Source of the DNA: Chloroflexota bacterium | GTDB lineage: Bacteria; Chloroflexota; Anaerolineae; UBA4142 | Reading direction: 5' to 3' | DNA: 63,111 bases | Assembly: GCA_023489485.1 (NCBI GenBank) | Contig: JAMDCU010000158.1 | Span: 1-63,111, forward strand | Part shown: piece by piece, positions 2,768 to 53,196 of the stretch | How the letters are laid out: each line of letters opens with the position of its first letter | How positions within the stretch are numbered: position 1 is the first letter of the stretch | Made by a program: the position numbers and the translations under genes | The notes under the pieces: generated by a model | Database searches by the model: none | Seen by the model: the letters and a program-made list of their open reading frames with translations, nothing else | What the model was told of the DNA's origin: nothing

Positions 2768-2781
2768 ATTGATTATCGGGC

Positions 2782-5218: not shown

Positions 5219-5226
5219 TCAATTTC

Positions 5227-5521: not shown

Positions 5522-7984
5522 ATGGCTACGATCTCAGAAACAGGGTCGGATCCATCTGCCAGTCCTGGGCACGTGATTGAGGCGATCAACGCCATCGACC
5601 CGAAGATGCCCCGTATCGTCGGCTTGCTCGATCGCTTTTACGATAGCCCGGTGCAGATTTGCCCCGCACGCTCGCATCTTGCTACGGAATCGTGGAAAGA
5701 AACCGAAGGGCAACCGCTCCACCTCCGGCGCGCCTATCTCTTCGCTAAGGTCTGTGACGAGATCCCGATCACAATTTTTGACCGGGAGCTCATCGTCGGT
5801 TCGCAAACACCCTTTCCACGGGGCGTTGGCTTGCAGCTGGATTTCAGTCCTCAGATGGGCTTGGAGATCGAGGCGGGCGACCGCCGCCTCCGTGCCGACC
5901 AGACGGAAGGCCTCCTCACCGATGCTGACTTGAAAACTATCGTAGACGATGCCCACTATTGGCAAGGACGCAGCCCGGGCGACGTAATGTTGCAAGAGAT
6001 TCGAGCGGTGATGGGGTCCAGGTACGAAGACGTCTCGGTGGATGTCTGTACGCGCTCCCACGGCAAGCAATCGCTCTCTTCTCCCCATCCCGACTATGAC
6101 AAGCTCTTGAGAGTTGGCCTGTGCGGCATTATCGCCGAGATTGATCACGAGATCCAAAAGATCCAGTTCTCCTCGCCGCGTGATGGGGACAAGTATCTGT
6201 TCCTGCGTGCCGCGAAATTGGGATGCGAGGCGCAAATCCGTCTGGCACGTCGGTATGCGCAGCTAGCGCGCCAGATGGCAGCTCAGGAAGCGAATGACGT
6301 GCGGAAAAAAGAACTTGAAACGATCGCCGAAATCTGCGAACAGGTCCCTGAGAATCCACCGAGGAATTTCTGGGAAGCGCTGCAGAGCATTCGGTTTATC
6401 CATCTAGGATTGTACCTCGAGGAGGGAAACGGGAGCGGCATCCCCCTCGGCCGGCTTGACCAATACCTTTATCCCTTTTTCCACGACGACCTGGAACTCG
6501 GCAAGCTGACGATAGAGCAAGCGGCCGAGCTCTTATCTGCGTTTTGGATCAAGATGGCATCCACCGACGCCTTTGTCGTCGCTGGCGTCAAAATCAGCGG
6601 TGCTGGTTACTTAAATACCCGGACCACGTTGGGCGGGGTGGACCGGTCGGGGAATGATGCATCCAACTCGCTCACCTATCTCATTTTGCATATCGCCGGG
6701 CACTTGAAGCTAGGTGTACCCATCTACCTGCGGTGGCATTCGGGCACTCGGCGTGAGTTGATGCTCAAAGCCGTCGAAACGAATATGCAGATTGGGTCCG
6801 AGCCGGCGTTTCACAACGACGAGCATATCATTCCTGGGCTCGTGGCGGACGGGGTTTCACTGGAGGATGCACGCGATTATCTCGTCGATGGGTGTGCGCA
6901 TCCCTATCCGTATGGAAGTATCTATGGGACTTACCATTTCATCGACGGCGCCAAGGTGTTTGAGTTGGTGATGTATAACGGCCACGACCCCCGCACCGGC
7001 AAACAACTGGGCATCCAGACCGGCGACCCCGTGGAATTCGAAAGTATCGAGGATTGGATTGGCGCGTTTCAAAAGCAATGGGAATATGTCTACGATACTG
7101 TACTCAAGGGATTCAAAATCGGTGAGTTGGTCAAGATGCAGGTATACAGCCAGCCGTTTGCTTCGGCCCTCTCACCCGACTGTATCCAGAAAGGACAGGA
7201 TGTTCACGCCGGCGGGGTCCGCTACCCTCAGTTCACGGGAGATGTCTACAACAAGATCTACGCGGACGTTGTCGATTCACTGGTCGCCATCAACGAATGG
7301 ATCTACCGGAAACGCACTCTCTCTGTCTCCGAATTGATCCAGGTGTGCATGAGCGATTTCGCCGGCGAAAGAGGTGAGGTGATTCGACGAATGCTCGAGT
7401 CTGCGCCCAAATTTGGCAACGACCTGGGGAAGCCGGAGGAGACCTACCGGATCTTGAACGACTACGCGGCAACCTGGGGACGGTCGCGGAGGGGGCAGTT
7501 CGGTTATCCGAAACGCGATGTCAAATTGGGCGGTGCCGTTCACGGGTCACATGGCCGGATTGTGGGCGCTTTGCCGAGCGGCCGCAAGGCGGGGATGCCG
7601 TTGGCCGACGGCGGGATTTCTCCTTGTGCAGGGGTCGATACCCAAGGCCCCACGGTGACAATGCGTTCTGTCGCCAAGTCGTTGGCGTATGAAGGTAATC
7701 GTACGGCGGTCCTGAACATGAAAATGCCCAAGAGCCTGCTCCGAACTCGAACTGAGCGGGAACGCTTGGTCGATTTGATCGAGTCCTACTTCGTGGGGTA
7801 TAACGGCTATCAGGTTCAGTGGAATATTCAGGACCGCGAATTCTACTTGGCCGCCAAGGCGCATCCATCCGAATACAAGAACCTGATCGTGCGCGTGGGC
7901 GGCTACAGCGCCTATTTTGTTGAGCTCGACTCGCTGTTGCAAGACCAGATCATCGCCCGAACTGAACAGCGCATTTGTTGCTAA
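5522..7984 (+). CDS. Glycyl radical enzyme, close paralogue of GRE1 (GRE2)
   Basis: 820 aa. LIVRVGGYSAYFVEL glycine-radical motif and Cys loop LEDARDYLVDGCAHPYPYG. Collinear with GRE1 over its full length. RBS GGGAGG lies upstream of the ATG. Confidence 0.9.
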   Translation: MATISETGSDPSASPGHVIEAINAIDPKMPRIVGLLDRFYDSPVQICPARSHLATESWKETEGQPLHLRRAYLFAKVCDEIPITIFDRELIVGSQTPFPRGVGLQLDFSPQMGLEIEAGDRRLRADQTEGLLTDADLKTIVDDAHYWQGRSPGDVMLQEIRAVMGSRYEDVSVDVCTRSHGKQSLSSPHPDYDKLLRVGLCGIIAEIDHEIQKIQFSSPRDGDKYLFLRAAKLGCEAQIRLARRYAQLARQMAAQEANDVRKKELETIAEICEQVPENPPRNFWEALQSIRFIHLGLYLEEGNGSGIPLGRLDQYLYPFFHDDLELGKLTIEQAAELLSAFWIKMASTDAFVVAGVKISGAGYLNTRTTLGGVDRSGNDASNSLTYLILHIAGHLKLGVPIYLRWHSGTRRELMLKAVETNMQIGSEPAFHNDEHIIPGLVADGVSLEDARDYLVDGCAHPYPYGSIYGTYHFIDGAKVFELVMYNGHDPRTGKQLGIQTGDPVEFESIEDWIGAFQKQWEYVYDTVLKGFKIGELVKMQVYSQPFASALSPDCIQKGQDVHAGGVRYPQFTGDVYNKIYADVVDSLVAINEWIYRKRTLSVSELIQVCMSDFAGERGEVIRRMLESAPKFGNDLGKPEETYRILNDYAATWGRSRRGQFGYPKRDVKLGGAVHGSHGRIVGALPSGRKAGMPLADGGISPCAGVDTQGPTVTMRSVAKSLAYEGNRTAVLNMKMPKSLLRTRTERERLVDLIESYFVGYNGYQVQWNIQDREFYLAAKAHPSEYKNLIVRVGGYSAYFVELDSLLQDQIIARTEQRICC

Positions 7985-8004
7985 CGGGAAGCAAAGAAGT
8001 TGAG

Positions 8005-8964
8005 ATGCGGGTTCTAGTCACAGGGGGTGCGGGGCGGTTAGGAATTCGAGTTTGTGAAACGGGATTGAAGCACGGATTTCAGGTGAGGATCTTCGACGTT
8101 GAAACGCCGAAAACCCGTGCAGCACTGGGCGGACTTTCGGGCAAGGCTGAGATCGTCTGGGGAGACATTACCCGTCCTGTTGATATCGGCCGAGCCTTGA
8201 AGGATGTCGAAGCGGTCGTCCACATGGCGGCTGTTCTGACAGCGACGACGGTAGTCAACCCGGATTTGGCGACCCACGTCAATCTGGGAGGGACCCGGCT
8301 TCTCGTCCAGGCCCTTCAATCTTCTGGCCGGCATATTCCCTTTATTTATACTTCCTCCGTGGCCGTGTTCGGACCCACTCCGGATGCCACCGAACCTCTT
8401 TGCCCAGAGCGAGTGACTCCCCATCCCAAAGGGATATACGCCGAAACGAAACTGGCCGCGGAAGAGCTCATCAGGGCGGCCGGGATTGATTTTGTCATCC
8501 TGCGACTAGGATCCCATTGGCAGGACCAAATCTTTTCAAGAGCGGAACTTCGTTATATGTTCCGGATTCCGCTCGACAATCGTATCGAAACCAGTCACCC
8601 GGACGATACGGCACTGGCGATCATCAAGGCGATCAAGTATTTCGACTCCATGAACGGCAGGACACTGGTCATCAGCAGCGGCCCGCGCGGACGGATGCTG
8701 CATCGAGAGCGCGTGCGTGCAATCCTTGATATCCTTGGGCTGCCTCTGCCGCCTGCTGAACGTTTTAGCCGACAGCCGGCGCCCATGGACTGGTATGATA
8801 CCACCAAGTCGGAGCAGATCCTGCACTACCAGACTAGGACTTTTAGCGACAGCCTCCTTGATTACCGAGCGGCATTGAGCAGACGGTATTCCCCGCTATT
8901 CGTCCCGCTCATGCGTTACCTGGTAGGCCCTCGCCTGGGCCGATGGATCGTGCGTTGGATTTAA
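8005..8964 (+). CDS. NAD-dependent epimerase/dehydratase (extended SDR)
   Basis: MRVLVTGGAGRLG Rossmann motif at the ATG at 8005 (track start 7975 is upstream). YAETK (YxxxK) is present. Confidence 0.7.
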   Translation: MRVLVTGGAGRLGIRVCETGLKHGFQVRIFDVETPKTRAALGGLSGKAEIVWGDITRPVDIGRALKDVEAVVHMAAVLTATTVVNPDLATHVNLGGTRLLVQALQSSGRHIPFIYTSSVAVFGPTPDATEPLCPERVTPHPKGIYAETKLAAEELIRAAGIDFVILRLGSHWQDQIFSRAELRYMFRIPLDNRIETSHPDDTALAIIKAIKYFDSMNGRTLVISSGPRGRMLHRERVRAILDILGLPLPPAERFSRQPAPMDWYDTTKSEQILHYQTRTFSDSLLDYRAALSRRYSPLFVPLMRYLVGPRLGRWIVRWI

Positions 8965-8987
8965 ACGGAATACAGAGGAGATCAAGC

Positions 8988-11405
8988 GTGCAAGCGAGAA
9001 TCGCCAAGTTGACCCACGCGCTACAAGCCGCCCGCGCCAACGGGATTCCGGTGAGCACTGTAAAAGGACAGCTAATAACTGAAGCTTTCCAAGACACTGA
9101 AGGCCAACCCCAGATTATACGGAATGCCCTTGCCATCGCAAAGGTGCTGGACAACATTCCCATCTTCATTGAGGACGACGACATGTTGGCTGGCAACCTG
9201 GCAAGCAAGCCCGGAGGGGTTGAGCTTACCTGCCTGTGGGGGACCTGGTCTCCCACGGACCTCGATAGTCTCATCCAAGATGGTTTTAGCATCTCGGCCG
9301 ACGAGCGTGCAGAAATCGCCCGAATGAACGAATACTGGCGACGAAGGACCCTCACGGGCAGAATGGTGCAGCTCTATGACAACGAACGCCTCTGGCCCTA
9401 TGCGCAACTCGGCGTCGTGCTGCCCGCCTTTCGCAGCAAGGATGAGGGCTGGGGACCTGGAGGAATGATCGGCTGCGGGTACGGCGTCCGTCACGAGATC
9501 AGCCAGATTCTCGGGATCTTTGATTTTGAAAAGGTGCTAAACCAAGGGACCCGCCAGATCATCGAGGAGGCACAGCAAGAGCTACGCTCAACTCGAATTT
9601 TGAGCGCGGATGCCGTCAAGAAAGTGGATTATCTCAAAGCGGTGATTCTCGCGCATCAAGCGCTCATTCGCTTTGCTGGCCGGTTCGCTGTGCTTGCGAA
9701 AGAAATGGCAGCGAAGGAACAGAACCCAGAGCGCCGGGCTGAACTAGAGAAGATGGCGGTCACCTGCCGCTGGGTTCCCGCGAATCCGGCGCGCACGTTC
9801 TATGAGGCGATGCAGTCTTTCTGGCTCACGCTGTTAGTCCTGCTCCCTTCCGGGGTCCTGTCGTTAGGTCGCTTTGATCAATTCATGTATCCCTTCTACA
9901 AGCGGGACAGGGCGGTCCGCAGGATCACCGACGATCAAGTGTTGGAAGTACTTGAATGGCTTCGGTTCAAAGATTCACAGATTATTGTCACGGCGGGTTC
10001 TACCCATCGCAACAAATACGGCGGGCACGCGAAGTGGCACAATATGACGATCGGGGGTCAGACAGGAGACGGCCGAGACGCAACGAACGAATTGACCTTT
10101 CTCGTGCTGGAAGCAGCCAGGGATTGCCCGACGCCTCATCACACGATTACCTTGCGCGTCCATGACGGCATGCCTGCGGAGCTCATGCGGAAGGCGCTTG
10201 AATTGGTTCGGACGGGCATTGGCATGCCTGCCTTTATCGCCGACCAGTCCTGTATTGATTATTTGCTTTCGCATGGCATACCGTTGCGGGATGCACGAAA
10301 TTACGCCATTGCAGGCTGTCTCGCCATCAACGTTCCTACCCAATCGCGCACGATTGCTCACCCCATGTTTGTCGTACCGATGGTCTTTGAGTATGCGCTG
10401 AACAATGGCAGAGATCCGCGAACCGGGAAACAAGTGGGTCCCGAGACGGGCGAGTTTGAGAGTTTTGATTGTTTTGAAGATTGGATGAAAGCGCTTCAAT
10501 CCCAACTCGCTCATTTTATCGAGCTGCAGGCTGAGTTCAACAACATTACGATTCGCGCCTATGGCGAATTGTACCCGCAGCCGATCGAATCGTCGTTGAT
10601 GATCGATGGGATTCGAGCGGGCCGAGATATCCTTGAACGCACCCTGCCTTTGGAGAATGGCTCGGTGCTCAATCCTATTGGAATGATCAACGTTGCGGAT
10701 TCGATGGCGGCCATCAAGAAATTGGTCTTTGAGGAGAAAAAGATCTCACCCCGAGAGTTGATGGTAGCGCTTGCCGCCAATTGGGCGGGCGAAAGGAACC
10801 AGGAAATTCACCGCCTGTGTCTCGCCGCGCCCAAATACGGGAATGATGATGACTATGTAGATGACATTGCCCACGATCTCTATCAGTTTTGGGCGGCCAA
10901 GACGATGACGCTGGGCACCAGTCTGGGCGGGAAACAAAAGCCTGCTTCTATCACAATTGGGACATGCCAGATTCCCGGAGGAGCGGCAACCGGAGCGACG
11001 CCAGATGGCCGGTATGCCGGCGAGAGTCTTGCGGACGAGTCAATGGCGGCAATGCGAGGTCGGGATGTATGCGGACCCCGGGCACAGATCAAGAGCGCGG
11101 CGAAAATTGACCAGGTTCTGTATCAATCGACGTCACTCGATTTGAAATTCCATCCCGCGGCACTGGCGAATGAAGAAGGTTTGCAGAAACTGGGCGATTT
11201 GATCCTCACCTACTTTCGGGCCGGCGGCAAGCACATTCAATTCAATGTGGCGAGCAACCCGACATTGCTGGATGCACAGGAACACCCGGAGCAGCATAAG
11301 AACCTGATCGTCCGTATTGGGGGGTGCAGCGCGTATTTCGTCGAACTGACCAAGCCCGTCCAAGATGAAATCATCAAGCGGACTGAACACCAGCACGTGA
11401 GCTGA
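8988..11405 (+). CDS. Glycyl radical enzyme, divergent third paralogue (GRE3)
   Basis: LIVRIGGCSAYFVEL glycine-radical motif and Cys loop LRDARNYAIAGCLAINVPT. GTG at 8988 is preceded by GAGGAG; ATG at 8943 is the alternative start and overlaps the epimerase gene. Confidence 0.85.
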   Translation: MQARIAKLTHALQAARANGIPVSTVKGQLITEAFQDTEGQPQIIRNALAIAKVLDNIPIFIEDDDMLAGNLASKPGGVELTCLWGTWSPTDLDSLIQDGFSISADERAEIARMNEYWRRRTLTGRMVQLYDNERLWPYAQLGVVLPAFRSKDEGWGPGGMIGCGYGVRHEISQILGIFDFEKVLNQGTRQIIEEAQQELRSTRILSADAVKKVDYLKAVILAHQALIRFAGRFAVLAKEMAAKEQNPERRAELEKMAVTCRWVPANPARTFYEAMQSFWLTLLVLLPSGVLSLGRFDQFMYPFYKRDRAVRRITDDQVLEVLEWLRFKDSQIIVTAGSTHRNKYGGHAKWHNMTIGGQTGDGRDATNELTFLVLEAARDCPTPHHTITLRVHDGMPAELMRKALELVRTGIGMPAFIADQSCIDYLLSHGIPLRDARNYAIAGCLAINVPTQSRTIAHPMFVVPMVFEYALNNGRDPRTGKQVGPETGEFESFDCFEDWMKALQSQLAHFIELQAEFNNITIRAYGELYPQPIESSLMIDGIRAGRDILERTLPLENGSVLNPIGMINVADSMAAIKKLVFEEKKISPRELMVALAANWAGERNQEIHRLCLAAPKYGNDDDYVDDIAHDLYQFWAAKTMTLGTSLGGKQKPASITIGTCQIPGGAATGATPDGRYAGESLADESMAAMRGRDVCGPRAQIKSAAKIDQVLYQSTSLDLKFHPAALANEEGLQKLGDLILTYFRAGGKHIQFNVASNPTLLDAQEHPEQHKNLIVRIGGCSAYFVELTKPVQDEIIKRTEHQHVS

Positions 11406-29229: not shown

Positions 29230-31248
29230 TCAGTTGCCTTTCAAAATCATGGCGCGATTGGCGAAGCAGTTGCGCAGGTTGGAGAGAGCCGAGTTGGCAG
29301 CCGAGATCGTCTCGTCCACGGCTAGCCAATCCGATTTCTGGACCATTCTGTCGAGAGTTGCCGACTGCACGGTCAATTTCTCGGCGTCCCGGCGCAGTCC
29401 TGTGCCGAGGTCCATAAGGCGTTGCGCTTGTTTGGCCGACACGCGATCTCCAAGCATCAACACCAGCCCACCCGTCTCCGCGCCTTCAAGCTCCTGTCGT
29501 AAGCGGTTTGCCTTTTCTTCAATCTCTTTCAGCCGAACCGCTCGGTCAAGGTGGTCGCTTACCATGTGATGACGCACCTCGCGCCAGCAGTCAGCCATCT
29601 TCGTCAGCTCATTGGCCGTTCGAGCACGCAGGAGAGCATCGGATTCCAGGACACGTTCGGCGCTGAGCCGGTTCAGCCAGCCGCGCTCGAAATCCTCTTT
29701 GCGCCGGCTGTACTCGGAATCCAGCCACTGAGAGCCGATAAACGCGCCAACCGTTGCGAGAAGGCCGAAGCCGGCCGCCATGATTTTGATGGTCGAGTCA
29801 TCTTGGACCAGACCCGGCGCGACGATGCCGACGAAGGTAATCGCGGAGAACAGAATACCGGCGAGCAGCTTGAGACGTGTGGCCCATGCGAGGAGGGCCG
29901 CGTTGCGCTGCAAAAACTTGTCTTGCTTGGTCTGGTGCCGATCATGGAGCAATACCTGCTCGATGCGGTCTTCGATGCGCTGACGTAGTCCGTTCATCCG
30001 GCGCTCAATCGCCTGGCTCAGGACTGCGATCCCGCGCGCCTGGCCTCCGGGCTTGGCCAGTTCCTGCTTGACCTGCTTTTCCTCTTCAGGGGTGAGCAGA
30101 TGCGGACTACCGGTCTTGTCCTCCAGCGCCTTGACTGCGCTTTCCACATCGGGGCTCGCCTTGAGCTGTTGCTCGATCTCCTGCTTGCCGCTCTCGCCCT
30201 GGAGAGTCTCAAGCTTCTCGATTGCTTGCGCTTCGTCAACCGCAGGGGCAAAGTCGATTGACGTGATCTCTGCCTCGGTGAGTCCGTTGTCCGCACAAGA
30301 ATCGTCGAGCGGCTTGCTGACGCAGCCAATCACTTGAGAAAGAGAGCGCGGATTATCGAATAGGGTTCCGGCATCATAATCGTTGACCGCGGCTTGAATG
30401 GCCGGAGAGAGGTCGGCCGCGACGATATTAGCGAGGGTTCGGCGATCGATGAGAGGTTGCGTGTCAAGCACGCGGGCCGCAAAGCGGAGGGCATCCGTGA
30501 CACGCATCCGGACGCGAAACGTCCAGTCGAGGGGCTCGCCATCAGCGGAAGTGAGGTGGTGAGCGGTAGCTAAGAGCGGGAACTCGGTCATATCGACGAG
30601 CGCGGCAAGTGCCGGCTCACGGGAGCCGATCCACCGGATGATGTGCTGGCCCGGAGGAACAACCTTTGCAGGGGCATTTCCCGTGTAAAGGACGCCGTTG
30701 TGGTCAGGCGGGACCAGGAAGGTCTTCCAGAAGATGCCGGGCAATCCGTCCACCTCGACGAGGCGAGCGATCACAGCCGCGTTCGGGTCTGGCGCAGATA
30801 TTGGCTGGCTCGGAGCAATCGGTTCATTCCGGCCCGACGCCGGCGTCGCCGCAGGTTTGCTCCCGAAAGGCCAGTTTGGCAGTAACCCCGCCGATTTGAG
30901 GAGGGCGCTCACCGCGCGAGTTCCGCCGCCGACGATCAGGCCGGTAAAGCCAAAGTCGAGGAGCCTTGCCCACTCCTGGCTCACATTCGGGATTCCGAGA
31001 TTCAGCCAATGAAGGATGCCGATGCCAAAGATCCAGCAGACGGCAATGCCCAGCAGGACGGCAAGCGATGACGCGACCAGAGGCTCCCGCCGCTCGAAAT
31101 CGGCAATTTGGGCGGGAGAGGCATCGCGCGGCGCCTGCCATCCGACAATGTCTTCCAGTAGAATGTGCGTTACGCCTTCGACGGCGGCTGCGATGAGCAG
31201 CAGCCCAAACAGGAACCCTGCGCTCGGCAAGCCACAAATCTGTGCCAT
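29230..31248 (-). CDS. Membrane protein with an SPFH-like central domain, internal TM hairpin and C-terminal coiled coil
   Basis: Hydrophobic N-terminus (GFLFGLLLIAAAV; LAVLLGIAVCWIFGIGIL). The block GIFWKTFLVPPDHNGVLY..VVPPGQHII..FRVRMRVTDALRFA is SPFH-like. A second TM pair is LLAGILFSAITFVGIV / AAGFGLLATVGAFIG. Confidence 0.5.
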   Translation of the reverse strand: MAQICGLPSAGFLFGLLLIAAAVEGVTHILLEDIVGWQAPRDASPAQIADFERREPLVASSLAVLLGIAVCWIFGIGILHWLNLGIPNVSQEWARLLDFGFTGLIVGGGTRAVSALLKSAGLLPNWPFGSKPAATPASGRNEPIAPSQPISAPDPNAAVIARLVEVDGLPGIFWKTFLVPPDHNGVLYTGNAPAKVVPPGQHIIRWIGSREPALAALVDMTEFPLLATAHHLTSADGEPLDWTFRVRMRVTDALRFAARVLDTQPLIDRRTLANIVAADLSPAIQAAVNDYDAGTLFDNPRSLSQVIGCVSKPLDDSCADNGLTEAEITSIDFAPAVDEAQAIEKLETLQGESGKQEIEQQLKASPDVESAVKALEDKTGSPHLLTPEEEKQVKQELAKPGGQARGIAVLSQAIERRMNGLRQRIEDRIEQVLLHDRHQTKQDKFLQRNAALLAWATRLKLLAGILFSAITFVGIVAPGLVQDDSTIKIMAAGFGLLATVGAFIGSQWLDSEYSRRKEDFERGWLNRLSAERVLESDALLRARTANELTKMADCWREVRHHMVSDHLDRAVRLKEIEEKANRLRQELEGAETGGLVLMLGDRVSAKQAQRLMDLGTGLRRDAEKLTVQSATLDRMVQKSDWLAVDETISAANSALSNLRNCFANRAMILKGN

Positions 31249-31435
31249 GGGACCCCCGTGTCACAAAACGAGATTCACACCCGTCCGTGCGAGAAAACTC
31301 ACGACTGGAAGGGATGTGCCATACCGGGCAAATCGAAGAGCGACATCATGCCATTTCCTTTGTTGTCCCACCCCGGGGTGCAAGACCCAGGGGGCAGGAC
31401 GATTTGATATTTGCCCGCAGCCCTCCAACCTGACT

Positions 31436-31466
31436 GCAGCCAGGGCACCGACCGCGCCATCTTTCA
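31436..31466 (-). promoter_or_regulatory. 31-nt box conserved 3' of both template repeats (second copy 51590-51620)
   Basis: gcagccagggcaccgaccgcgccatctttca versus gcagccagggcaccgaccgcgccatttttca (30/31). It lies about 55-70 nt downstream (- sense) of TR1 and TR2, and the flanking sequence is diverged. Confidence 0.5.
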
Positions 31467-31532
31467 TCCCTCGGCGACGCGTCCCGAGCGAGTCAAAAGA
31501 CGCGACGCATTTCCGGCGTAAGTGAAAGGTGT

Positions 31533-31647
31533 GCGACGCACAAACCCGAAAACCGTAGTTCTCGTTACGGTTGCCTGGATTGTTGTAGTTGCGATAGGCG
31601 CAGCGGACGTTCGTTGCATTGTTGTTGAACGCGCCCCCCCGCAAAAC
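31533..31647 (-). repeat. DGR template repeat TR1
   Basis: AAC-rich on the - strand (..[35 protein letters not shown]). Aligns to VR1 with 15 substitutions, all at TR adenines. Confidence 0.9.
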
Positions 31648-31670
31648 CCACGCGCCATCGGTCGAGCCCC

Positions 31671-32033
31671 TCACGCCGAGCCGCTTGGCTCGGGAGTGAC
31701 GGTTTTGAGCCAGCCGCCGAGCAACCGTCCCAGTTGGGCGATTATCTCGGAGGCGTAGCGATATTGCCGGCTCGAAATCCACTGCCAGCGCTCGCACAAA
31801 CGCAAGTACAGACGCACTTTGAGCAGTTCGGTGTCGGCCGCGCGCAGCTTTTGGGCGCGCATATTACCGCGGTGCGAATTCGCCTCGATCAGTAATTCCT
31901 GAAAGTTCAGCGCGGCATCCTGTAGACGACGCGTGACCACAAAGCGCTGCGCGCGCGGGAAACGCAACGTCAGCGGGACCAGCCAAGAAACGAAATCATA
32001 CGTCCGTGCAAAGATGATCATTTCCTCAGACAT
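31671..32033 (-). CDS. avd: DGR accessory variability determinant (Avd-like four-helix-bundle protein)
   Basis: 120 aa from the ATG at 32033, which overlaps the RT stop by 8 nt. [42 protein letters not shown]...[10 protein letters not shown] matches the Avd / 23S-IVS-protein pattern. The track start at 32126 lies inside the RT gene. Confidence 0.8.
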
Positions 32034-33087
32034 GCGTGACCTCGTCGGCGCGCAGGCCATACCGGTCCAGGAGCGCGCGGCGCAAGCCGTACGTGTCGCC
32101 ATGGCCCGCGTGGTTGATCCACCCACGCACGGATGCGTTCACGCGCTCGCGCGGCGCGGTCGCCAGCAAGTATTTGAGCCGCCGCTGAAAGGCGATTCCC
32201 TTGCGGCGTTTCAAACGACGATGATCTGGGAAAATGATAAAGCCGAGAAACGGAATTCCCTCGCGGACCGGGTACGGGCGGGCGCTTTCGGTGTGAATCG
32301 TCAGCCGATAGCGTGCGAGCCGCTCGATCAGCGCTGCGCGCCATTCCCACAATTGCGCCTTGCTCTCGCTGAAAAGCAAGAAATCGTCCACATACCGCAG
32401 ATACACCGGACAGCGTAGTTCGCGCTTGACGAACTGATCGAAGGGGTTCAGATAAACGTTGGCCCACCATTGCGAAGTGAGGTTCCCGATTGGAAGGCCG
32501 CGCGGGCGCGTCGCGGCAAACAGATCGTCGCCAGGAAAAAGAACGAGGCGATATTCTTCGGATAAGACATCGCGTCCGCTCGCGAGAATTCGATCAATGA
32601 GCCACTGTAGATCCGGTGTGGGGTGGATCAATTGTTCCAGCGTCTCCCGCAAAATCGCGTGATCGATGGAAGGAAAGAACTGCACCACATCGCCTTGCAA
32701 GACGTAAGGGAATCGGCGCGCAAATTGTTGGCACCGGTCGAGTGCGCGATGCGTGCCTCTGCCAGTCCGATTGGCATAACTGTCCGGCAGGAAAGCGCGT
32801 TCGAGACACGGCACCGTCACGCGGCAGAGCGCGTGATGCACGACCCGGTCGCGAAAGGGCGCGGCAGAGATGAGCCGGCGCTTGGGTTCGTGGATGAAGA
32901 ACGAGTGGTAGGCGCCGGGTTGGTAGGTCTGCGCGCGCAATTCGTCTTGTAGCTTGAGCAAATTGTCCGCGAGTCTGAATTCGAAAGTCGCCGTTGCCGC
33001 GCGCCCACGCTTGCCGCGCGATGCTGCGCGAAACGCTTGCCATAAATTGTCCCAGGCGTAAACTTGATCAAGGTCTATTCTTTCCAT
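32026..33087 (-). CDS. DGR reverse transcriptase
   Basis: 353 aa. RT motifs include RRLISAAPFRDRVVHHAL, GLPIGNLTSQWWANVYL (the DGR-type I/LGxxxSQ signature) and YLRYVDDFLLF (YxDD). Confidence 0.95.
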   Translation of the reverse strand: MERIDLDQVYAWDNLWQAFRAASRGKRGRAATATFEFRLADNLLKLQDELRAQTYQPGAYHSFFIHEPKRRLISAAPFRDRVVHHALCRVTVPCLERAFLPDSYANRTGRGTHRALDRCQQFARRFPYVLQGDVVQFFPSIDHAILRETLEQLIHPTPDLQWLIDRILASGRDVLSEEYRLVLFPGDDLFAATRPRGLPIGNLTSQWWANVYLNPFDQFVKRELRCPVYLRYVDDFLLFSESKAQLWEWRAALIERLARYRLTIHTESARPYPVREGIPFLGFIIFPDHRRLKRRKGIAFQRRLKYLLATAPRERVNASVRGWINHAGHGDTYGLRRALLDRYGLRADEVTHV

Positions 33088-35074
33088 TTTTCATTTTTCC
33101 ACGAGGGGGCGCTGTGTGCCCCCTCGTGCTCCCCCGGGCGATCAGAGATTCAGAGTTCAGAGAGCCAGAGATCAGAGGTGGATGGGCGACGCACAAACCC
33201 GAAAACCGTAGGACTCGAGACGGTAGCCTGGAAGGTTGAAGTAGCGAGAGGCGCAGCGGACGCTCGTAGCATCGAGGTTGAACGCGCCCCCCCCGCAAAA
33301 CGCGGTATTGCCCTGATTCCGGTCCCGCCGGATTCTTCGCCGGTGACTTTTGATAGTACGCCTCGTCCCACCAATCGGCGCACCAATCCCACACGTTCCC
33401 CGCCATATCCACGCATTTGTATGGACTGTCTCCGTGCGAGTTATACTTGCCCACGGGCGTCTTCGTACCGACGTTGTTGCCAAAGTTGCACAGATTCGGG
33501 CTGGGCGCGTTATTCCCCCAAGGATAGATTCTGCCGTCAGTGCCGCGTGCCGCTTTTTCCCACTGCGCTTCGGTTGGTAGGCGAATCTCCGTCCCATTTA
33601 CTTGGCTCGCCCATTTGCAGAACGCAACCGCGTCATCCCAGTTGACGCCCGTGATCGGATGATTGCCCTTCTGATTCACATTGCCAGACACCGTAATCTG
33701 GTAACCTGTCGCCTTGACAAAAGCCCAGAATTGCAGAACTGTCACCGGGTACTTGCCGATATAGTACTCATCCAATTCGACGGTGTGTTGCGGCTTTTCC
33801 TTCGCTTCTGCATGCCCATCGTTGTTTCCGCTTCCCATCGCAAATTCGCCTGCAGGTACACGCACCAGTACCAGTTCAATGCCTTGCGCCAATTGCAGAA
33901 CGATTTCGTCGCCGCTCTGGAATCGCTCCAGCGACCGCTCCGCGTGCGTGAGCCGGGTTTGCGCTGCCCTTTGCTTTTCGTCGGCTTTTCGCCGCGCCTC
34001 TTCCGCCTCCAATGCGGCTTGGCGCGCTTGCGCTTGCTCCTGTTGCAGTTCCTTCAGCAGCGTTTCAGTTTCTCCCGCCAATTGATCCAGTTGCGCGGCT
34101 TGCGCTTCCGCCAGTCGCTGCGCACGTTCGGCCTCCTCCTTCTGCCGCTGCAGCGCCTCAATCCGTGCTCGCGCTTGGGCTACCGCCGTCTCGCGCACTT
34201 GCATCAGTTTCGCCGTTTTCTCCGCCGTGGCCTGCTGTTCGGCGCTCAGCGCGGCTTGCAGCGCTTGGACGAACGCGGTCGCATGCTTGGGACGGTCGGC
34301 AGGACGCTTGGCAAGCGCGCGCAGGACTTGGGCGGCAAGCGCAGGCGGAAGGTCGGCTCGCAGATCGAGCGGGTTGGGCGGTGGTGCATCAGCATGCATC
34401 CGCACTACCGCGACCGGCGTGTTTGCACGGAACGGTATCTGACCGGTGAGCATCTCAAATACGACCACCCCGAACGAGTAGAGATCGGAGCGTTCGGTGG
34501 CCGGCTGGCCGCAGGCTTGCTCGGGCGAAAGATACTCGGCCGTCCCAATAAAGCTTTGCGATTGGCTGATGGTGCTCATGTAGGCGGAGCCTTCGATCCC
34601 ACGCATCAGCCCAAAATCGCTCAGGTATGCGCGCCCATCCTCGTCCAATAGGATGTTTGCCGATTTCACGTCGCGGTGGACCACACCCTGCGCGTGGGCA
34701 TAGTCCAGTGCGCCGGCCACCTGTGCAGCGATGCGGAGTACCATTGGCACGGCGAGCGCGCCGGAATCGTGCAGCCGCGTGCGCAAGTCAAAGCCCCGCA
34801 CGAGCGTCATCGCGATGTAAAAGCGTCCTTGCGCCTCGCCGTAATCGAGCGACCTGACGATGTTGGGATGGTCGAGCTTGGACGTGAGTTTGAACTCTTG
34901 CTGAAAGCGCGTGATGAACGTGGGGTCGTCCGCGAGCTTGGGATCAAGCGCTTTGACCGCGACATCGCGCTGGTTTTTTTCGTCGCGTCCGAGGTACACC
35001 GTCGCAAAGCCACCGCGACCGAGTTCACGAAAGAGCGTGTAAGGACCGAGAGAAAATGGAAATTGATTAACCAA
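33068..35074 (-). CDS. STK4: Ser/Thr kinase, coiled coil, FGE-sulfatase/C-type-lectin-fold domain; DGR target, reading frame broken inside VR1
   Basis: TTG start. GRGGFATVY, HRDVKSANILL, DFGL. ~110-aa coiled coil with no hydrophobic TM stretch. FGE motifs [78 protein letters not shown]. As assembled the frame slips at the G8 run and ends at 33068. With G7 the protein would end at 33172 (..FRVCASPIHL*). Confidence 0.85.
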   Translation of the reverse strand: MVNQFPFSLGPYTLFRELGRGGFATVYLGRDEKNQRDVAVKALDPKLADDPTFITRFQQEFKLTSKLDHPNIVRSLDYGEAQGRFYIAMTLVRGFDLRTRLHDSGALAVPMVLRIAAQVAGALDYAHAQGVVHRDVKSANILLDEDGRAYLSDFGLMRGIEGSAYMSTISQSQSFIGTAEYLSPEQACGQPATERSDLYSFGVVVFEMLTGQIPFRANTPVAVVRMHADAPPPNPLDLRADLPPALAAQVLRALAKRPADRPKHATAFVQALQAALSAEQQATAEKTAKLMQVRETAVAQARARIEALQRQKEEAERAQRLAEAQAAQLDQLAGETETLLKELQQEQAQARQAALEAEEARRKADEKQRAAQTRLTHAERSLERFQSGDEIVLQLAQGIELVLVRVPAGEFAMGSGNNDGHAEAKEKPQHTVELDEYYIGKYPVTVLQFWAFVKATGYQITVSGNVNQKGNHPITGVNWDDAVAFCKWASQVNGTEIRLPTEAQWEKAARGTDGRIYPWGNNAPSPNLCNFGNNVGTKTPVGKYNSHGDSPYKCVDMAGNVWDWCADWWDEAYYQKSPAKNPAGPESGQYRVLRGGRVQPRCYERPLRLSLLQPSRLPSRVLRFSGLCVAHPPLISGSLNSESLIARGSTRGHTAPPRGKMKNGKNRP
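33102..33126 (-). promoter_or_regulatory. GC-rich 9-bp hairpin downstream of VR1 (second copy 51903-51927)
   Basis: cgagggggc-gctgtgt-gccccctcg. It sits 60 nt 3' of VR1 and 15 nt before the RT ATG. It is part of an ~84-nt flank that is ~93% identical at both VR loci. Confidence 0.6.
33186..33301 (-). repeat. DGR variable repeat VR1
   Basis: Encodes ..[39 protein letters not shown]. Identical to TR1 except at 15 TR-adenine positions, plus one extra G in a G7 run (C8 on + at 33287-33294 versus C7 at 31634-31640). Confidence 0.9.
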
Positions 35075-37357: not shown

Positions 37358-39221
37358 CTACTCGCAGTCCCAGAAGCTCGCGCCCTTGCACACCGGCGAA
37401 TCCGTCACCTTCCAGGGCCAATACCGCTCGTCGTAGACTTGGATTTTGCCCAGTTGCTCGAGCGGCACACGGCGAGTGCCGTCCACTTCTAAGGCGGATA
37501 GTGCGTGGTTCATTGACGAGTACGCAATGACCCATTTTCCGCCCGTGGACCAGAATCTTGGAACGTCTCCTATGTCGCTCCCGCTTATGCGAGTGAGACC
37601 ACTTCCATCAACGTTCATAAGAAATGTACCGAAGTCATTCTTAAACATATCGTAGACCGCAATCTTGCTCCCGTCCGGTGACCAAACCGCGTCAGAGACG
37701 TACCCATCAGACGGGCCTCGACTTGTAACGACAGTGCTATTACTCCCGCCCTCATCCATCAATAGGAGTTGGTTTCCGAAACCCCCGTGTCGGCGGAAGA
37801 TAGTCCCCACGCGACGGAAACCAGCACTTCAGATCCATTTCGCGACCAGACTGCAGATGCAATCTTCCTGTTCCGAGGCGGCGCAAAGATTTGCAACCGA
37901 GTTTGCTTGCCCAAGTCAAAGATGCTTAGAAGATTACTCGCGGCCGTTCCTGCGGCGTCATTCCTCTCTATTCTCTTCTGCGGCCCCGGCGGCGTTGCCG
38001 TCGAGGTCGGCGGTGGAATCGGCATGGCGGTCACGACCACCACCCGCGGCGTCCATGTCGGGATGGAAGTAGCCGTGTGCACGGCCCCGTTGGCGCTACG
38101 GTAGGCGGCACAATGGAGGCGCTTGTTGTCACCGGGGTCGAAGCTGAAGTAGACACGACTGGGATCCCTGCGACCGTTTCCGAGGACACTGGAAGCGCCG
38201 AGGGCGTTGCCTCGGTGATTCCTGCCATCTGCCTGCTTGGAGGAGCGAACAAGCCCGCTGCAGCGAACACCACGGAAAGAATCAAGAATACCGCCGCAAT
38301 GCCTGCTACCACGAGCGCCCAGGTCTTTTTCTTCGGCCGGGCAGGCGGTTTGGCTTCTGGCTTGGGAGTCTCTATGGGGGGCGGCGGGTCGATGAGACGC
38401 GGAACAGACGCCAGTTGCAGGGCGAGAGCGAATGCTGCTGCAAACTCGCCAGCGCGGGCATAGCGTTCGCTCGGCTCCTTGGCGAGCGCTTTCAGCACTG
38501 CCTGCATGACACCATCGGGCAGACCGGTCATGGGACGAACCGGCATTACGGGGTGTCGCCACATGACGGCTGCCGGAGTCTCAGCATCGAACGGCACCCG
38601 TCCAGTGAGCAGTTCGCATACGACCACGCCCAACGCGTAAATATCTGTTTGCGCGCTCGCTTGCCGTCCCTCCCATACTTCCGGGGCAATGTATGCGGGA
38701 GTTCCGATGATGGCGCCCGAGGACAGGCTTGCGGAGGATTCGGTTGCCTTAACAAGGCCGAAATCTGTTACGGTGGCCGCATCATCCGCACCTAGAATGA
38801 TGTTGCTCGGCTTGATGTCTCTATGGATGAATCCTCGGGCATGAGCATAATCCAATCCATCGGCAACTTGGCGCACAATGGCGATAACACGGCTTGGAGG
38901 GATAGCCCCTTCCTCTTTGATCACCTGTCTGAGATCGCGGCCTGGGATGTACTTCATGGCGATATAGTGGGCGCCCTGCCACTCGCCAATCTCGTAAATG
39001 GTGACAATGTGCTGATGATCGAGTTTAGCCGCCGCTTTCGCTTCCTGCTCAAAGCGCGAGACAAGTACCGGGTCAGAATAGATGCCGGCGTGCAAGACCT
39101 TGAGCGCAACAACACGATCGAGCGTCGTGTCCAGGGCCTCGTAGACGACGGCATTCGCGCCGCGGCCAATCTCTCGGCGAATCTTGTACTTGCCAAGCAT
39201 CTCGGGCAGAGGTTGCGTCAT
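37358..39221 (-). pseudogene. STK6: Ser/Thr kinase, TM helix, TolB/PD40-like beta-propeller; split by two frameshifts
   Basis: The kinase ORF 38031-39221 (GRGANAVVYE, HRDIKPSN, DFGL; TM WALVVAGIAAVFLILSVVFAAAGLF) continues in a second frame (..IPPPTSTATPPGP..IASAVWSRNGSEVLVS, to about 37760). It then continues in a third frame (37358-37810: ..AVWSPDGSKIAVYD..LMNVDGSG). Shifts are near 38060-38100 and 37780-37810. Confidence 0.7.
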
Positions 39222-47099: not shown

Positions 47100-47316
47100 C
47101 GGTATCTCCTGTCACCATCCGGCGCACGACCAGAGCGAATCCGCGTGGTCAGGAGGGTGCCTTGCCTCAGGGCTCGGCCGGCGCCTACGGTCTGGGGCAG
47201 GGCGGTTCTTATTCGGTTGGGGATCACCCAACCAGGAACAAGTCTATAGTTCACCCTTTTCGCCTCGGTCGTCCGTCCTTGAACGCAAGACAATCCGGCG
47301 CACCTGCAGCGGGAGA

Positions 47317-49272
47317 CTATTGGGCGCAGCGAAACCCAATGGGGTTGTTACGGCCGACCGGCGTGCCGTCGCTGCGGCCGGACGCGCGTACGGAGTCCTG
47401 AAAGTAGTTCCAGGAGCCGCCGCGCAGCACGCGATATGGCCCAGAAGATGGTCCCTGCGGGTTCTTGCGCGGCGCGTTGGCATAGTATGCCTGATCGTAC
47501 CAATCTGCCACCCACTGCCACACATCCCCTGCCATATCCATCGCACCGTACGGGCTCGCACCCGCTGCATAACTCCCAACCGCGGTCGTATCTCCCTGCC
47601 CACCTTCCCATGAATTGAGCAAGGCCCTGTCGAAGGTGCTACCCTAGGGATAGATTCGTCCGTCCGTTCCCCGCGCGGCTTTTTCCCACTCCGCTTCGGT
47701 TGGCAGCCGCTTGCCCGCCCACGTGCAGAAGGTGCCTGCGTCATTCCAGGACACATAGATGACGGGATAGTTGTCGTATTCTGCATTGCCATAGTAGGAA
47801 CTGCGGGTGGAGGAGCCTGAGTTGGAAGGCGCTTGGCATTTGCCGGCATCCAGGCAGCGTTTGTACAGCGCGTTCGTCACCTCGAATTTGTCTATATCAA
47901 AGGCATCGAGGTAAACCGTGTGCTGCGGCTTTTCGTCGCTTCGTGCCATCGAGTCGCTGTTACTGCTGCCCATCAAGAAATCGCCGGCAGGTACAAACAC
48001 CATCGGCGCGCCGCCGATCACGCGCTCCTCGCCTGAGGCGGTGGCTTGTGTGGCGGCAGGCATCGGCGTGAAATAGGCTGCAGCCGTAGGCGCTTTCGTA
48101 CGAGGCGCGGCGGCTACGGGCGTAAGAGTTGCCACCCGAATGATCTCTGGCCCGGTCAGCGCCGCAATCGTGGCGATTCCCACGACCAACACCAGCGTAA
48201 CAAGGCAGCCGGCCAAGGCCCAGCTCCTGATTCGCTTGCGCCGGCGCGCGGCATCTTCCCCTGCGCGGCGCTCCGCCTCCTGGCGTGCGGCGACCTCGCG
48301 GGCGCGTTGTTCTTGTCGCTCCCGCTCGGCGCGCTCGCGTGCTTGTTGCCCTTCCAGTTCCCGCTCGGCTTGCTCCCTCGCCTGTCGCTCTGCCTCCGCG
48401 ACTCGCTTTTGCCCCTCGCGGAGCGCTGTCGCGACGGCGCTCATCGTCACATAGCGCTTGGCGGGACTCGCGGCATCTGCCGCCTTTAGCCCCGGCATGT
48501 CGCATAGCATCCGCATGACGATCGCTTCCAGCCACTCGGGCGCCTCGAGTCGCAGGTCGCGCACCCGCGTCACTTTGTGCATCACCCGCTTGTATACCTT
48601 GCCCGTCAGCATCTCGAAGGCGATGCAGCCCAGACTGAACACATCTGAGGTCGGTCCTAGCGGCTGCCAGCCGTCGTGCTCGGGCGAGCGATAATCCGGC
48701 GTGCCGGGATGCATCCCTGCCTGGCTCCCCAGTTCGCTGCGCATGCTGGATTGACCGCCGCCGACCTGCGCCAGCCCCAAATCCGCAATCTTGGCTCTGC
48801 CGTTCTTGTCCAGCAGAATATTCGAGGGCTTTACATCCCGGTGGATGATCTCCAGGTCGTGAAGCGCTTGGAGACCTGCTGCACAATCGAGCAGGATTTC
48901 AACGACTCGTTCGACCGGAAGTGGAGACTCTTTAACGATCAGATCTTTGAGGCTGCCGCCCGGGGCGTATTCCAACACAGCATAAAGGGATTCCGGCTCC
49001 TCAAAGACGTCATACGCCCGGATCACGTTCGGATGGTCGACTTGCGCCGCGATCCGGAATTCCTCTTTGTAGCGTTGAGCATAGTCGCGAAATGTCGTGC
49101 TCCCCACGCCGGGCGCGTCGGAGCGCAGCACCTTGATCGCGCGCAGCACGTTCAGGTCGAGATGCCGTGCACGATACACCTCAGCAAACGCGCCGTTACC
49201 GGCAAGCGCTTCGATGCGATACTTGCCGTTGAGGATTACGTCGCCAGGCTGCAACATCCTTTTGTCTACCAT
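47317..49272 (-). pseudogene. STK8: Ser/Thr kinase, coiled coil, TM helix, FGE-sulfatase domain; one in-frame TAG
   Basis: A single frame runs from 49272 to 47317, interrupted by TAG at 47644-47646 at the Trp of the conserved DGRIYPWGN motif (it reads RIYP*G). Kinase motifs [23 protein letters not shown] segment [25 protein letters not shown] tail ..GDVWQWVADWYD..YRVLRGGSWNYFQDSVRASGRSDGTPVGRNNPIGFRCAQ*. Confidence 0.8.
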
Positions 49273-51397: not shown

Positions 51398-51589
51398 CGC
51401 GATAGACCTGCTCAGCGCTATTTGGAGTCCGGTAGATGCAGCAGCCGTCCTGATCCGTGCGTACCGACCGCATCCGTGACGATCTGTGTGCGATAAGGCG
51501 GGGCGCTCCACCTCGAAGCCGATGGCTCAAGAAGTGGAGCATTTTTGGTATTCGCCTGCGGAGAGGTTTGCCCCATAACCCCGGTTTCC

Positions 51590-51620
51590 GCAGCCAGGGC
51601 ACCGACCGCGCCATTTTTCA
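51590..51620 (-). promoter_or_regulatory. Second copy of the 31-nt TR-downstream box
   Basis: See 31436-31466; 30/31 identical. Confidence 0.5.
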
Positions 51621-51675
51621 AGCCGCGTCAGCGCAGCCGTAGCCGCGCTGAATTTCTGGCACGCTGGAAAAACGT

Positions 51676-51799
51676 GCGACACGCACGCCCGCAACCCGTT
51701 GTTGTCGTTGCGATTGTCAGGGTTGTTGTAGTTGCGGTACGCGCAGCGGACGTTGTTCTCGTTGTTGTTGAACGACCCGCCCCGCAAAACGCGCGTGTC
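51676..51799 (-). repeat. Second template-like repeat TR2, with no adjacent RT or Avd
   Basis: The - strand encodes [37 protein letters not shown], with 13 Asn (12 AAC, 1 AAT). About 80% identical to TR1. It lies ~190 nt downstream of the VR2 gene stop. Confidence 0.7.
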
Positions 51800-51902
51800 T
51801 TTCGGTCGAGCCCTTCATGCCGCGTTTTGCGACGCTGACATGACACGATGAATGGTCTCTCGACATGTTGCGAGAGCGACGACGATTGAAAAACCTTTTC
51901 GA

Positions 51903-51972: not shown

Positions 51973-53196
51973 TCAGAGCTGAATGGGCGACACGCACACC
52001 CGCAACCCGTCTTCATCCAGGCGGTCGTCAGGATTGAGCCAGCTGCGGTACGCACAGCGGGCATCGGCCTCGTCGCTGCCGCTGAACGACCCGCCCCGCA
52101 AAACGCGCGAGTCGCGACTGTTGGTGTCCTCCTGTCCATCACCCCTCTCGTACGGATAAGGCTTGTACAAGCTGCTCGTCCACTCCCACACATTTCCTGC
52201 TATATCTGCGCAGCCATACGGGCTATCTCCGCGCGGGCTGTACTCGCCTACCGGCGTCGTGTCCTTCACATTCATATTGAAGTTGCAGCGGTTTGCGTCC
52301 GGCGCGTCGTTGCCCCATGGATAAATTCGCCCATCGGTACCGCGCGCCGCTTTCTCCCATTCCGCTTCGGTTGGCAAGCGCACGCTGCGTCCAGTTGTCT
52401 CGCTCACCCATTCGCAAAACGCCACCGCATCATCCCAGCTCACCAGCACTACCGGATGGTTTGCCTTCCCGCTCACATTGCTCTCGGGTCCCCGCGGATG
52501 CTGCCAATTTGCGCCCCTGACCTCTTTCCATCCACTCCCTGTGAAAGTCCACCCGCTGCCTTGCTGCTCTGCCGTCGTCTGATAGCTCGTGGCTTTCACG
52601 AATGCCGCAAACTGCGACACCGTCACGGGATACCTGCCAATCAGATACTCATCGAGGAATACCTTCTGCTGCGGTTGCTCGTTACTGTCCGTTTGCCGAT
52701 CCTTCCTCGGATCGCTGCCCATCAGAAACTCACCCGCCGGCACACGCATCAGTTCCAATGTCACATCCGGTGCCAGCGTGAGAATCAATTCATTCGCTTT
52801 GCGCTGGCCCTCTCCCGTCTCATTTCGTGCTTTTGACTCCGCTTCGCGTCGCGCCTGCTCCTCGGCTTCTTTCTTCCATCGCCTTTCCTCGATCGAAGCA
52901 CACTCATTGCAGATGAATAAAGCAGGATGCTGGTGGCGGAGACAAATGAATTCGCGTGTACATTTCCTGCACCGGAACGTTTCTTCGCGGCGGTTGTACT
53001 TGCCACAGAGTGGGCATTCGCCTCCGCCTAACGGGGTCGCCTGCTCTCCAATGACTACGGTTCCGGCCTTGACAACCGTGCCCCGGACGTTGACGATATC
53101 GCCGTCATCCGCGGCAAGTTGTGGCAATCTTGCACCGCAGTTTTGGCAGAACCTCGCGTCGTTCGGTTGATCGCGCTCACACTGGGGACACCGCAT
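51973..53196 (-). CDS. Zinc-ribbon / Cys-rich N-terminus, short coiled coil, FGE-sulfatase (C-type-lectin-fold) domain carrying VR2
   Basis: MRCPQCE..CQNCGARL, then CPLCGK..CRKCTREFICLRHQ..CNEC. FGE motifs [60 protein letters not shown]. No TM segment. Confidence 0.85.
   Translation of the reverse strand: MRCPQCERDQPNDARFCQNCGARLPQLAADDGDIVNVRGTVVKAGTVVIGEQATPLGGGECPLCGKYNRREETFRCRKCTREFICLRHQHPALFICNECASIEERRWKKEAEEQARREAESKARNETGEGQRKANELILTLAPDVTLELMRVPAGEFLMGSDPRKDRQTDSNEQPQQKVFLDEYLIGRYPVTVSQFAAFVKATSYQTTAEQQGSGWTFTGSGWKEVRGANWQHPRGPESNVSGKANHPVVLVSWDDAVAFCEWVSETTGRSVRLPTEAEWEKAARGTDGRIYPWGNDAPDANRCNFNMNVKDTTPVGEYSPRGDSPYGCADIAGNVWEWTSSLYKPYPYERGDGQEDTNSRDSRVLRGGSFSGSDEADARCAYRSWLNPDDRLDEDGLRVCVSPIQL
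51987..52113 (-). repeat. Variable repeat VR2
   Basis: Encodes RGGSFSGSDEADARCAYRSWLNPDDRLDEDGLRVCVSPIQL*. Aligns to TR2 with most changes at TR adenines, but also ~10 non-A changes and one extra codon. Confidence 0.7.

Follow-up and report, generated by a model that had tools for sequence, protein, structure and literature searches.

Based on the analysis of a 63,111-nucleotide stretch of DNA from a Chloroflexota bacterium (contig JAMDCU010000158.1 of assembly GCA_023489485.1, hereafter the window), we lean towards the view that one of its genes encodes a cytoplasmic Hanks-type kinase tied by a helical linker of fixed length, about 110 residues, to a non-catalytic C-type-lectin-fold (CLec) domain, which is rewritten by a diversity-generating retroelement (DGR) and would sense an intracellular ligand. 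The gene (Table 1) is a genuine DGR target; its function as a sensor is what the sequence suggests, and a receptor kinase of this kind had been proposed in an earlier note on the same DNA.

Diversification of the target is documented by the genes for a reverse transcriptase (RT) and the accessory variability determinant (Avd) and by a template repeat (TR1), all of which lie directly downstream of it on the same strand. The RT is full length and carries the sequences IGNLTSQ and YVDD, which we take to be DGR-type motifs. It is 57–72% identical to RTs encoded beside Avd and genes with the fold of formylglycine-generating enzyme (FGE) at 20 or more loci, and it shares 57–68% identity with RTs from GTDB genomes that carry the label Anaerolineae, Anaerolineales or Chloroflexota. 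By these matches the host is probably a filamentous bacterium akin to the Anaerolineae. Avd was recognized by the Pfam model bAvd (3e-18) and scored 94.3 bits with the NCBIfam model DivGenRetAVD (NF033474), for which the curated cut-off is 80. When the variable repeat of the target (VR1) was compared with TR1 over the 118-nt core, 16 of the 29 template adenines were found to be changed as opposed to 0 of the 89 non-adenine positions, and by our own calculation the chance that 16 of 16 random substitutions would all fall on adenines is ~2e-10. Because VR1 departs from TR1 at adenines only, it must have been rewritten recently by retrohoming. TR1 allows about 2e15 protein variants. The earlier placement of VR1 at the C-terminal tip of the FGE/CLec domain holds in a repaired reading frame, described below, and does not hold for the gene as assembled.

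In the open reading frame (ORF) of the target, Pfam Pkinase matches residues 12–226 with 165.7 bits, and the match reaches residue 264 with PK_Tyr_Ser-Thr. In an alignment of 30 full-length homologues, residues G19, G21, K41, E60, H133, D135, K137, N140, D153, G155, P184, E185, D197 and R261 are invariant, and the motif set is complete, comprising the Gly-rich loop, the VAxK Lys, the alpha-C Glu, HRDxKxxN, DFG, (A/S)PE and the Arg of subdomain XI. Since every catalytic residue is kept, the kinase looks competent and is predicted to carry out phosphotransfer; the description of it as a complete Hanks kinase was thus borne out, with no catalytic residue missing on alignment. Its best solved relatives by sequence are StkP, PknB, PknE and PknA (E 6e-55 to 3e-47), and when an AlphaFold2 model of the target (mean pLDDT 84.4) was superposed on PknB, the TM-score, normalized to target length, was 0.82–0.92. 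A fold search with the whole model returned chiefly kinases and added nothing about the CLec domain. In a comparison with known anti-phage kinases (PD-T4-6, Stk2, Mad6, PglW), PADLOC models for PD-T4-6 scored up to 295 bits, with a match spanning the generic kinase domain only, and the NCBIfam scores for MAD6 and PglW fell far under their cut-offs. In one orthologue (P0008, 51% identity) the HRD motif reads HGD and the DFG motif reads DLG, and the kinase-CLec family may therefore include members that are of the non-RD type or have weakened activity.

The CLec domain is homologous to formylglycine-generating enzymes (sequence, E 5e-36) and matches the Treponema denticola DGR variable protein TvpA (2y3c; sequence, E 3e-21). 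On alignment with the FGEs of T. curvata and S. coelicolor, the first catalytic Cys is replaced by Leu at a codon that is variable in the TR, and the second corresponds to a gap or Ala; the copper-binding active-site Cys pair (LCH...SYC motif) is not present in the domain. Because the cysteine pair is missing while the fold is kept, we regard the domain as a putative binding module rather than an enzyme, as in other DGR targets.

Topology was judged from 19-residue Kyte-Doolittle windows and the ATP requirement of the kinase. The highest value in the target is 1.62 and is located in a helix of the kinase core, whereas each of the seven other kinases in the window has a segment after the kinase domain that reaches 2.55–3.04, including the paralogue STK8-FGE (residues 348–380). 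The transmembrane (TM) helix that would connect kinase and CLec in a PknB-like receptor is, by hydropathy, not found in the target, and in close orthologues the linker maximum stays below 0.7. The ORF is not extendable upstream, and since the kinase fold is already entered at residue 12, here as in all orthologues, a signal peptide would not fit in front of it. Keeping in mind the absence of an export signal and the presence of a domain that needs ATP, a cytoplasmic location is the default expectation for the protein. The same hydropathy values agree with what the earlier note had said of all three proteins, namely that the target has neither signal peptide nor hydrophobic helix, that STK8-FGE has a clear TM segment, and that the protein bearing a second variable repeat (VR2) is TM-less (maximum 1.10, with no TM-like segment).

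The segment connecting the two domains is highly charged and was modelled by AlphaFold2 as two long helices, residues 278–333 and 340–385, at pLDDT 46–73. It is free of indels across eight orthologues that share 51–63% identity, and 16 of its residues are invariant. Conservation of this kind, in length and in individual residues, is what would be expected of a signal-transmitting helix rather than of a spacer, and fits a mechanical coupling of CLec to kinase.

Cumulatively, these features suggest a mechanism in which the adjacent RT, Avd and TR1 would rewrite the C-terminal surface of CLec by adenine-specific mutagenic retrohoming, and the variable domain would bind an intracellular ligand, plausibly a phage or mobile-element protein or another changing cue. 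Ligand occupancy would then be passed through the linker, which is probably dimeric, to control autophosphorylation of the kinase, and the kinase may in turn signal into the surrounding kinase/SPFH/AAA island. Most characterized DGR targets are surface adhesins or receptor-binding proteins of phages. A cytoplasmic kinase-coupled target, if true, would tie programmed hypervariation directly to phospho-signalling, and nothing else in bacteria would come as close to a diversified immune receptor that has its own signalling domain.

Fusions of kinase to FGE are not confined to the window. Among the best 120 homologues there were 86 such fusions, some of them named by NCBI 'bifunctional serine/threonine-protein kinase/formylglycine-generating enzyme family protein', with a TM-like segment in the linker of 50 and none in 36; the seven closest orthologues (P0002–P0008) are all TM-less and have the helical linker in common. 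A genome scan with the whole target protein returned mostly unrelated kinases of Acidobacteriota and Planctomycetota. Orthologue P0006 (54% identity), encoded on locus L085, stands directly after an RT-Avd-TR cassette with an RT 72% identical to that of the window, and the VR of L085 shows 15 A-to-N changes with its VLRGGAF frame intact. Judged by its sequence, L085 represents a second, independent DGR-coupled member of the family. Orthologue P0002 (62% identity) lies on locus L001, in which the gene order of the window is kept (AAA, kinase, PQQ/zinc-ribbon, kinase, kinase, kinase-FGE, SPFH, zinc-ribbon-SPFH, kinase). Over the corresponding regions (10001–14398 of L001 and 29230–35074 of the window), 453 nt separate the kinase-FGE and SPFH genes in L001, and the cassette in the window takes up about 1.9 kb. 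Comparison of the two loci points to gain or loss of the DGR cassette exactly between these two genes.

The reading frame of the target copy in the window requires separate consideration. TR1 reads GTTTTGC-G7-CGCG whereas VR1 reads GTTTTGC-G8-CGCG, and with the extra G the last 37 residues of the domain are replaced by a 72-residue out-of-frame tail (...VLRGG followed by RVQPRCYE...) that overlaps the start of the RT gene. As assembled, the Pfam FGE-sulfatase match covers residues 403–603 (profile positions 5–227 of 255). Deletion of one G yields a 633-aa protein ending in GFRVCASPIHL, with its stop codon at 33172–33174, and the match grows to profile positions 5–253 while its score rises from 171.2 to 187.5 bits; the VLRGG(A/S)(F/W) frame so recovered is seen in every orthologue. 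In the 63 kb, G/C runs of seven or more occur in this motif only, once in TR1 and once in VR1, and since related TRs read GGGGCGG instead of G7, the run is peculiar to this element. When a second copy of the locus was sought with an exact 26-nt anchor from just upstream of the G-run, there were 0 hits in JGI metagenomes and 0 in GTDB genomes, and the last 142 residues, used as a protein query, gave no match above 67% identity. The one independent assembly of the same population, a short-read assembly represented by Logan contigs (SRR10244963) found via the flanking proteins, matches the window with 100% identity over 28 kb (contigs of 20.2 kb + 7.1 kb). Two of the contigs, L087 and L088, end at 33130 and 35033, the former position lying 42 nt past the repaired stop of the target and the latter 41 nt inside its start. 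Because the contigs stop at the one position and restart at the other, the Logan assembly brackets the target without covering it, a pattern suggestive of heterogeneity in, or allelic replacement of, the entire target gene, beyond the VR. The frameshift suspected in the earlier note is really in the assembly, and may be either genuine and fixed or an artefact.

It is quite possible, though we stop short of calling it probable, that the extra G arose in sequencing or assembly, in the longest homopolymer of the window and within a hypervariable region, and that the real gene is intact. The uniqueness of the two G-runs in the 63 kb, the recovery upon repair of the full domain match and of the orthologues' VLRGGAF frame, and the failure of the Logan assembly at precisely this gene, suggestive of a difficult or heterogeneous region, all point that way. 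On the other hand, the contig is otherwise of high quality, agreeing at every position with the Logan contigs over 17 kb and containing many intact ORFs of 700–860 aa, the identity over 28 kb means that two independent assemblers agree on the flanks, and neighbouring genes bear lesions that are not homopolymer errors. Those lesions would also fit a decaying island in which the G is genuine and fixed and the target is a pseudogene, its protein lacking the last beta-strands and the VR. We consider such a non-functional locus unlikely, even though the frameshift is present in the assembly, STK8-FGE has a TAG for an invariant Trp, the kinase ORF at 38031..39221 is followed by out-of-frame fragments with the same ORF calls in the Logan assembly, the second repeat pair has drifted (11 non-A changes and a 3-nt indel), and frame-shifting TR/VR indels are known from DGR surveys (Wu et al. 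2018, PMC5758913). Against it stand the lack of any substitution at the 89 non-A positions of VR1, 596 upstream codons free of stops, the retention of all catalytic and scaffold residues, the intact RT, Avd and TR1, and the position of the lesion in a segment that can be overwritten by TR1. With no non-A drift and with upstream codons and cassette intact, any inactivation would have to be very recent. Moreover, because the G-run falls within the TR-homologous segment, later retrohoming from TR1 (G7) could restore the frame, so that, if the extra G is real, the allele would be off and might be switched on again at the next retrohoming. An elaboration that we hold to be improbable is that the DGR itself made the extra G, by a slip of the cDNA at the G-run, which marks the 5' junction of TR/VR homology; the G8 allele would then be a reversible off state, resettable by G7, of an intracellular hypervariable sensor kinase that serves as the variable input of a conserved multi-kinase/SPFH/Vps4-like AAA island, through which a filamentous host of the Chloroflexota would respond to invaders. 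Another way in which R-G-G-A-F could on paper be restored, programmed +1 slippage of ribosomes on the G-run, was also considered and was set aside as speculation for which there is no supporting evidence.

Several observations weigh against the interpretation of the target as a DGR-diversified intracellular sensor kinase. In the window copy VR1 is out of frame as assembled, so this copy may make no functional binding domain, and two other island genes look damaged as well (STK8-FGE by its TAG, and the fragmented kinase at 37358–39221), which gives a real frameshift a higher prior. Locus L001 contains no RT, Avd or TR-like repeat in 22 kb, and the locus of orthologue P0005 (L082) has no local RT or TR. 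Among the 80 metagenomic FGE loci listed from JGI, a profile-scan sample of generic FGE matches, there were 13 kinase fusions and 4 RTs, none together; likewise, at the 22 GTDB loci that encode related RTs the targets have the FGE fold, and 0 of them are fused to a kinase. Among the loci listed, the search for kinase-FGE fusions beside DGR RTs in other genomes, recommended in the earlier note, thus turned up L085, reached via P0006, as the only pairing. Given that 0 of the 13 sampled fusions adjoin an RT and that L001 and L082 have no RT or TR locally, coupling to a DGR is not general to the kinase-FGE family. With a DGR in L085 and none locally in L001 and L082, the kinase-linker-CLec protein is a conserved part of a kinase-rich island to which the cassette is attached in some lineages only. 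Finally, the geometry between the domains is uncertain in the AlphaFold2 model (pTM 0.50), and the linker gives a weak heptad signal (p about 0.07 vs shuffles). Because this test was non-significant, we speak of a helical linker, for which a coiled coil is plausible; of the coiled coil of ~110 residues described in the earlier note, the length and the helical character stand and the coiled coil itself is no more than plausible.

The same architecture also underlies an alternative in which CLec recruits the proteins to be phosphorylated, so that the DGR diversifies substrate specificity and not signal input, as put forward explicitly by Vallota-Eastman et al. for kinase-CLec targets (PMC7517822). 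We find a selector of this kind rather doubtful, as a linker that is strictly conserved in length and contains invariant residues is more in keeping with the transmission of a signal than with passive tethering. It is very improbable that CLec is exported by an unrecognized route and serves at the cell surface as a receptor, in the manner of the TM-containing paralogues: although 50 of the 86 kinase-FGE fusions have an inter-domain TM segment, there is no hydrophobic segment in the target or its seven closest orthologues, the kinase begins at residue 12 and the linker is highly charged.

Kinase-coupled DGR targets have been described before, and the novelty implied in the earlier note does not survive comparison with the literature. 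Wu et al. (2018) listed a kinase-containing target type, b12, and reported that frameshifting TR/VR indels occur in DGRs (PMC5758913). Vallota-Eastman et al. (2020) found that in the DGR variable proteins of cyanobacteria, and in paralogues of these, the N-terminal domain is most often a Ser/Thr kinase, predicted most such kinase targets to be cytosolic, and proposed for CLec either an autoinhibitory role released by ligand or the selection of substrates (PMC7517822). Cytoplasmic DGR-diversified antigen sensors were proposed by Doré et al. (2024; PMC10907252), and a 2024 survey includes DGR targets annotated as Pkn1 or PknD with a CLec VR. The statement that FGE/DGR conflict systems had been proposed for multicellular bacteria is correct: that FGS/CLec domains diversified by DGRs belong to intracellular conflict systems of such bacteria was put forward both by Kaur et al. 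(2020; PMC7159879) and by Doré et al. (2024; PMC10907252). It is also correct, as far as the searchable literature goes, that experimental work on a kinase-coupled target is lacking: for this class there are several predictions, and no biochemical study was found.

Like the cyanobacterial kinase-CLec targets, the window protein has an N-terminal Hanks kinase and a C-terminal FGE-like CLec carrying the VR; both groups are mostly predicted to be cytosolic, have paralogues inside and outside DGR loci, and attract the same proposed functions, ligand-gated kinase or substrate selector. Unlike them, it belongs to a host lineage that is apparently Anaerolineae/Chloroflexota, has a distinct length-invariant 110-residue helical linker, is found in the order target-RT-Avd-TR within a conserved multi-kinase/SPFH/Vps4-like AAA island, and is frameshifted in this copy. 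It shares with the systems of Doré et al. and Kaur et al. a DGR-diversified cytoplasmic CLec/FGS domain fused to a signalling domain, several CLec paralogues per genome, and a filamentous or multicellular host lineage (presumed for the window host), whereas its signalling module is a kinase in place of the STAND NTPases and MoxR-vWA ternary modules of those systems. TvpA and other solved DGR variable proteins have the same FGE-like CLec fold with a C-terminal VR and no FGE catalysis, but TvpA is a surface lipoprotein without a kinase, and the window protein is kinase-fused with no export signal. The kinase domain is 37–40% identical to those of PknB and StkP, with complete catalytic residues, activation-loop Ser/Thr and the GTxxYxSPE motif; in contrast to the TM helix and extracellular PASTA sensors of these kinases, the window protein has no TM helix and a predicted intracellular hypervariable CLec sensor. 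The contribution of the locus is an example of Chloroflexota type in which the helical linker is invariant in length, the neighbourhood is conserved and of neither MoxR nor STAND type, and a homopolymer at the VR boundary bears a frameshift. Its value is that of a testable example and not of a new principle: it is a compact test case, with an intact RT-Avd-TR cassette, a recently rewritten VR and a length-invariant linker suggestive of coupling, and its natural comparators are the L085 orthologue with a DGR and the L001 orthologue in the same island without one.

Table 1. Coordinates of the target gene, its domains, the DGR and other features of the window.
Feature	Position	Strand	Remarks
Target gene, as assembled	33068..35074	-	668-aa ORF, TTG start
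Hanks-type Ser/Thr kinase domain, residues 12-275	34250..35041	-	all catalytic motifs kept
A/E/Q/R-rich helical linker, residues 276-388	33911..34249	-	without TM segment
FGE-like CLec domain, residues 389-633 in repaired frame	33175..33910	-	FGE catalytic Cys pair missing
Variable repeat VR1	33183..33301	-	3' end of kinase gene; 16 A-to-N changes vs TR1
G8 homopolymer (G7 in TR1)	33287..33294	-	+1 frameshift at 5' edge of VR1; longest homopolymer in window
Perfect 11-bp GC-rich hairpin, 7-nt loop	33100..33128	-	between repaired target stop and RT start
DGR reverse transcriptase, 353 aa, intact	32026..33087	-	RVT_1 E 1.1e-16
Avd (accessory variability determinant), 120 aa	31671..32033	-	start overlaps RT stop
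Template repeat TR1, 118 nt	31530..31647	-	29 adenines, 10 AAY codons
Conserved structured RNA	31357..31554	-	overlaps 3' end of TR1 and runs on downstream
Island, about 20 co-directional genes	about 18200-55000	-	Pfam scans
Fragmented kinase region	37358-39221	-	396-aa kinase-TM ORF (38031..39221), then out-of-frame fragments
STK8-FGE, TM-containing kinase-FGE paralogue	47244..49272	-	TAG at 47644-47646
TR2, second template-like repeat	51674-51822	-	79% identical to TR1
VR2	51984-52104	-	inside zinc-ribbon + FGE gene 51973..53196 (-)

Two RNA elements accompany the cassette. The hairpin between target and RT has no T-run after it and could be terminator-like, an attenuator or a DGR target-site element. 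The structured RNA overlapping TR1 recurs at about 51440–51690 on the minus strand, with TR2, as well as in loci L085, L089 and L090, and is marked by the motifs GCCGGAAATGC, GATGGCGCGG..CCCTGGC and GGGCAAATAYCAAA together with a hairpin. RNAalifold predicted 54 pairs from five sequences, 21 of them with compensatory changes, and comparison with Rfam matched no family.

The island around the target contains eight Hanks kinases, of which seven have a TM segment and varied sensor domains, along with two SPFH/Band_7 proteins, two Vps4/CdvC-like AAA ATPases, three FGE-fold proteins, two PQQ-propeller proteins (one with a zinc ribbon) and several ORFs that have no Pfam match; much of its gene order recurs in L001. 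Pfam scans of 33 window ORFs detected no MoxR, vWA, NACHT, NB-ARC or STAND domains, and membership in a MoxR-vWA ternary or STAND conflict system was rejected because those genes are absent. In STK8-FGE the TAG replaces the Trp codon (TGG) of YPWG, which is invariant in relatives, and reading through it gives a 651-aa kinase-TM-FGE protein. The fragments that follow the 396-aa kinase-TM ORF include the PD40-like sequence 'SPDGSKIAVY', and the ORF calls are the same on Logan contig L088; the region looks like a kinase-TM-propeller gene broken by frameshifts.

TR2 is located 150 nt downstream of the zinc-ribbon and FGE gene that bears VR2. It keeps the conserved downstream RNA and shares an identical 26-nt block with TR1, and VR2 differs from it by 17 adenine changes in addition to the non-A changes and indel given above. 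No second RT or Avd was found in the window: a single RT may serve both templates, or the pair may be the remains of a second DGR that has decayed. Elsewhere in the window, unrelated to the target, three tandem genes for PFL-like glycyl-radical enzymes (807, 820 and 820 aa) occupy positions 344–11405 of the plus strand, and a gene for a solute-binding protein and small ORFs lie between them.

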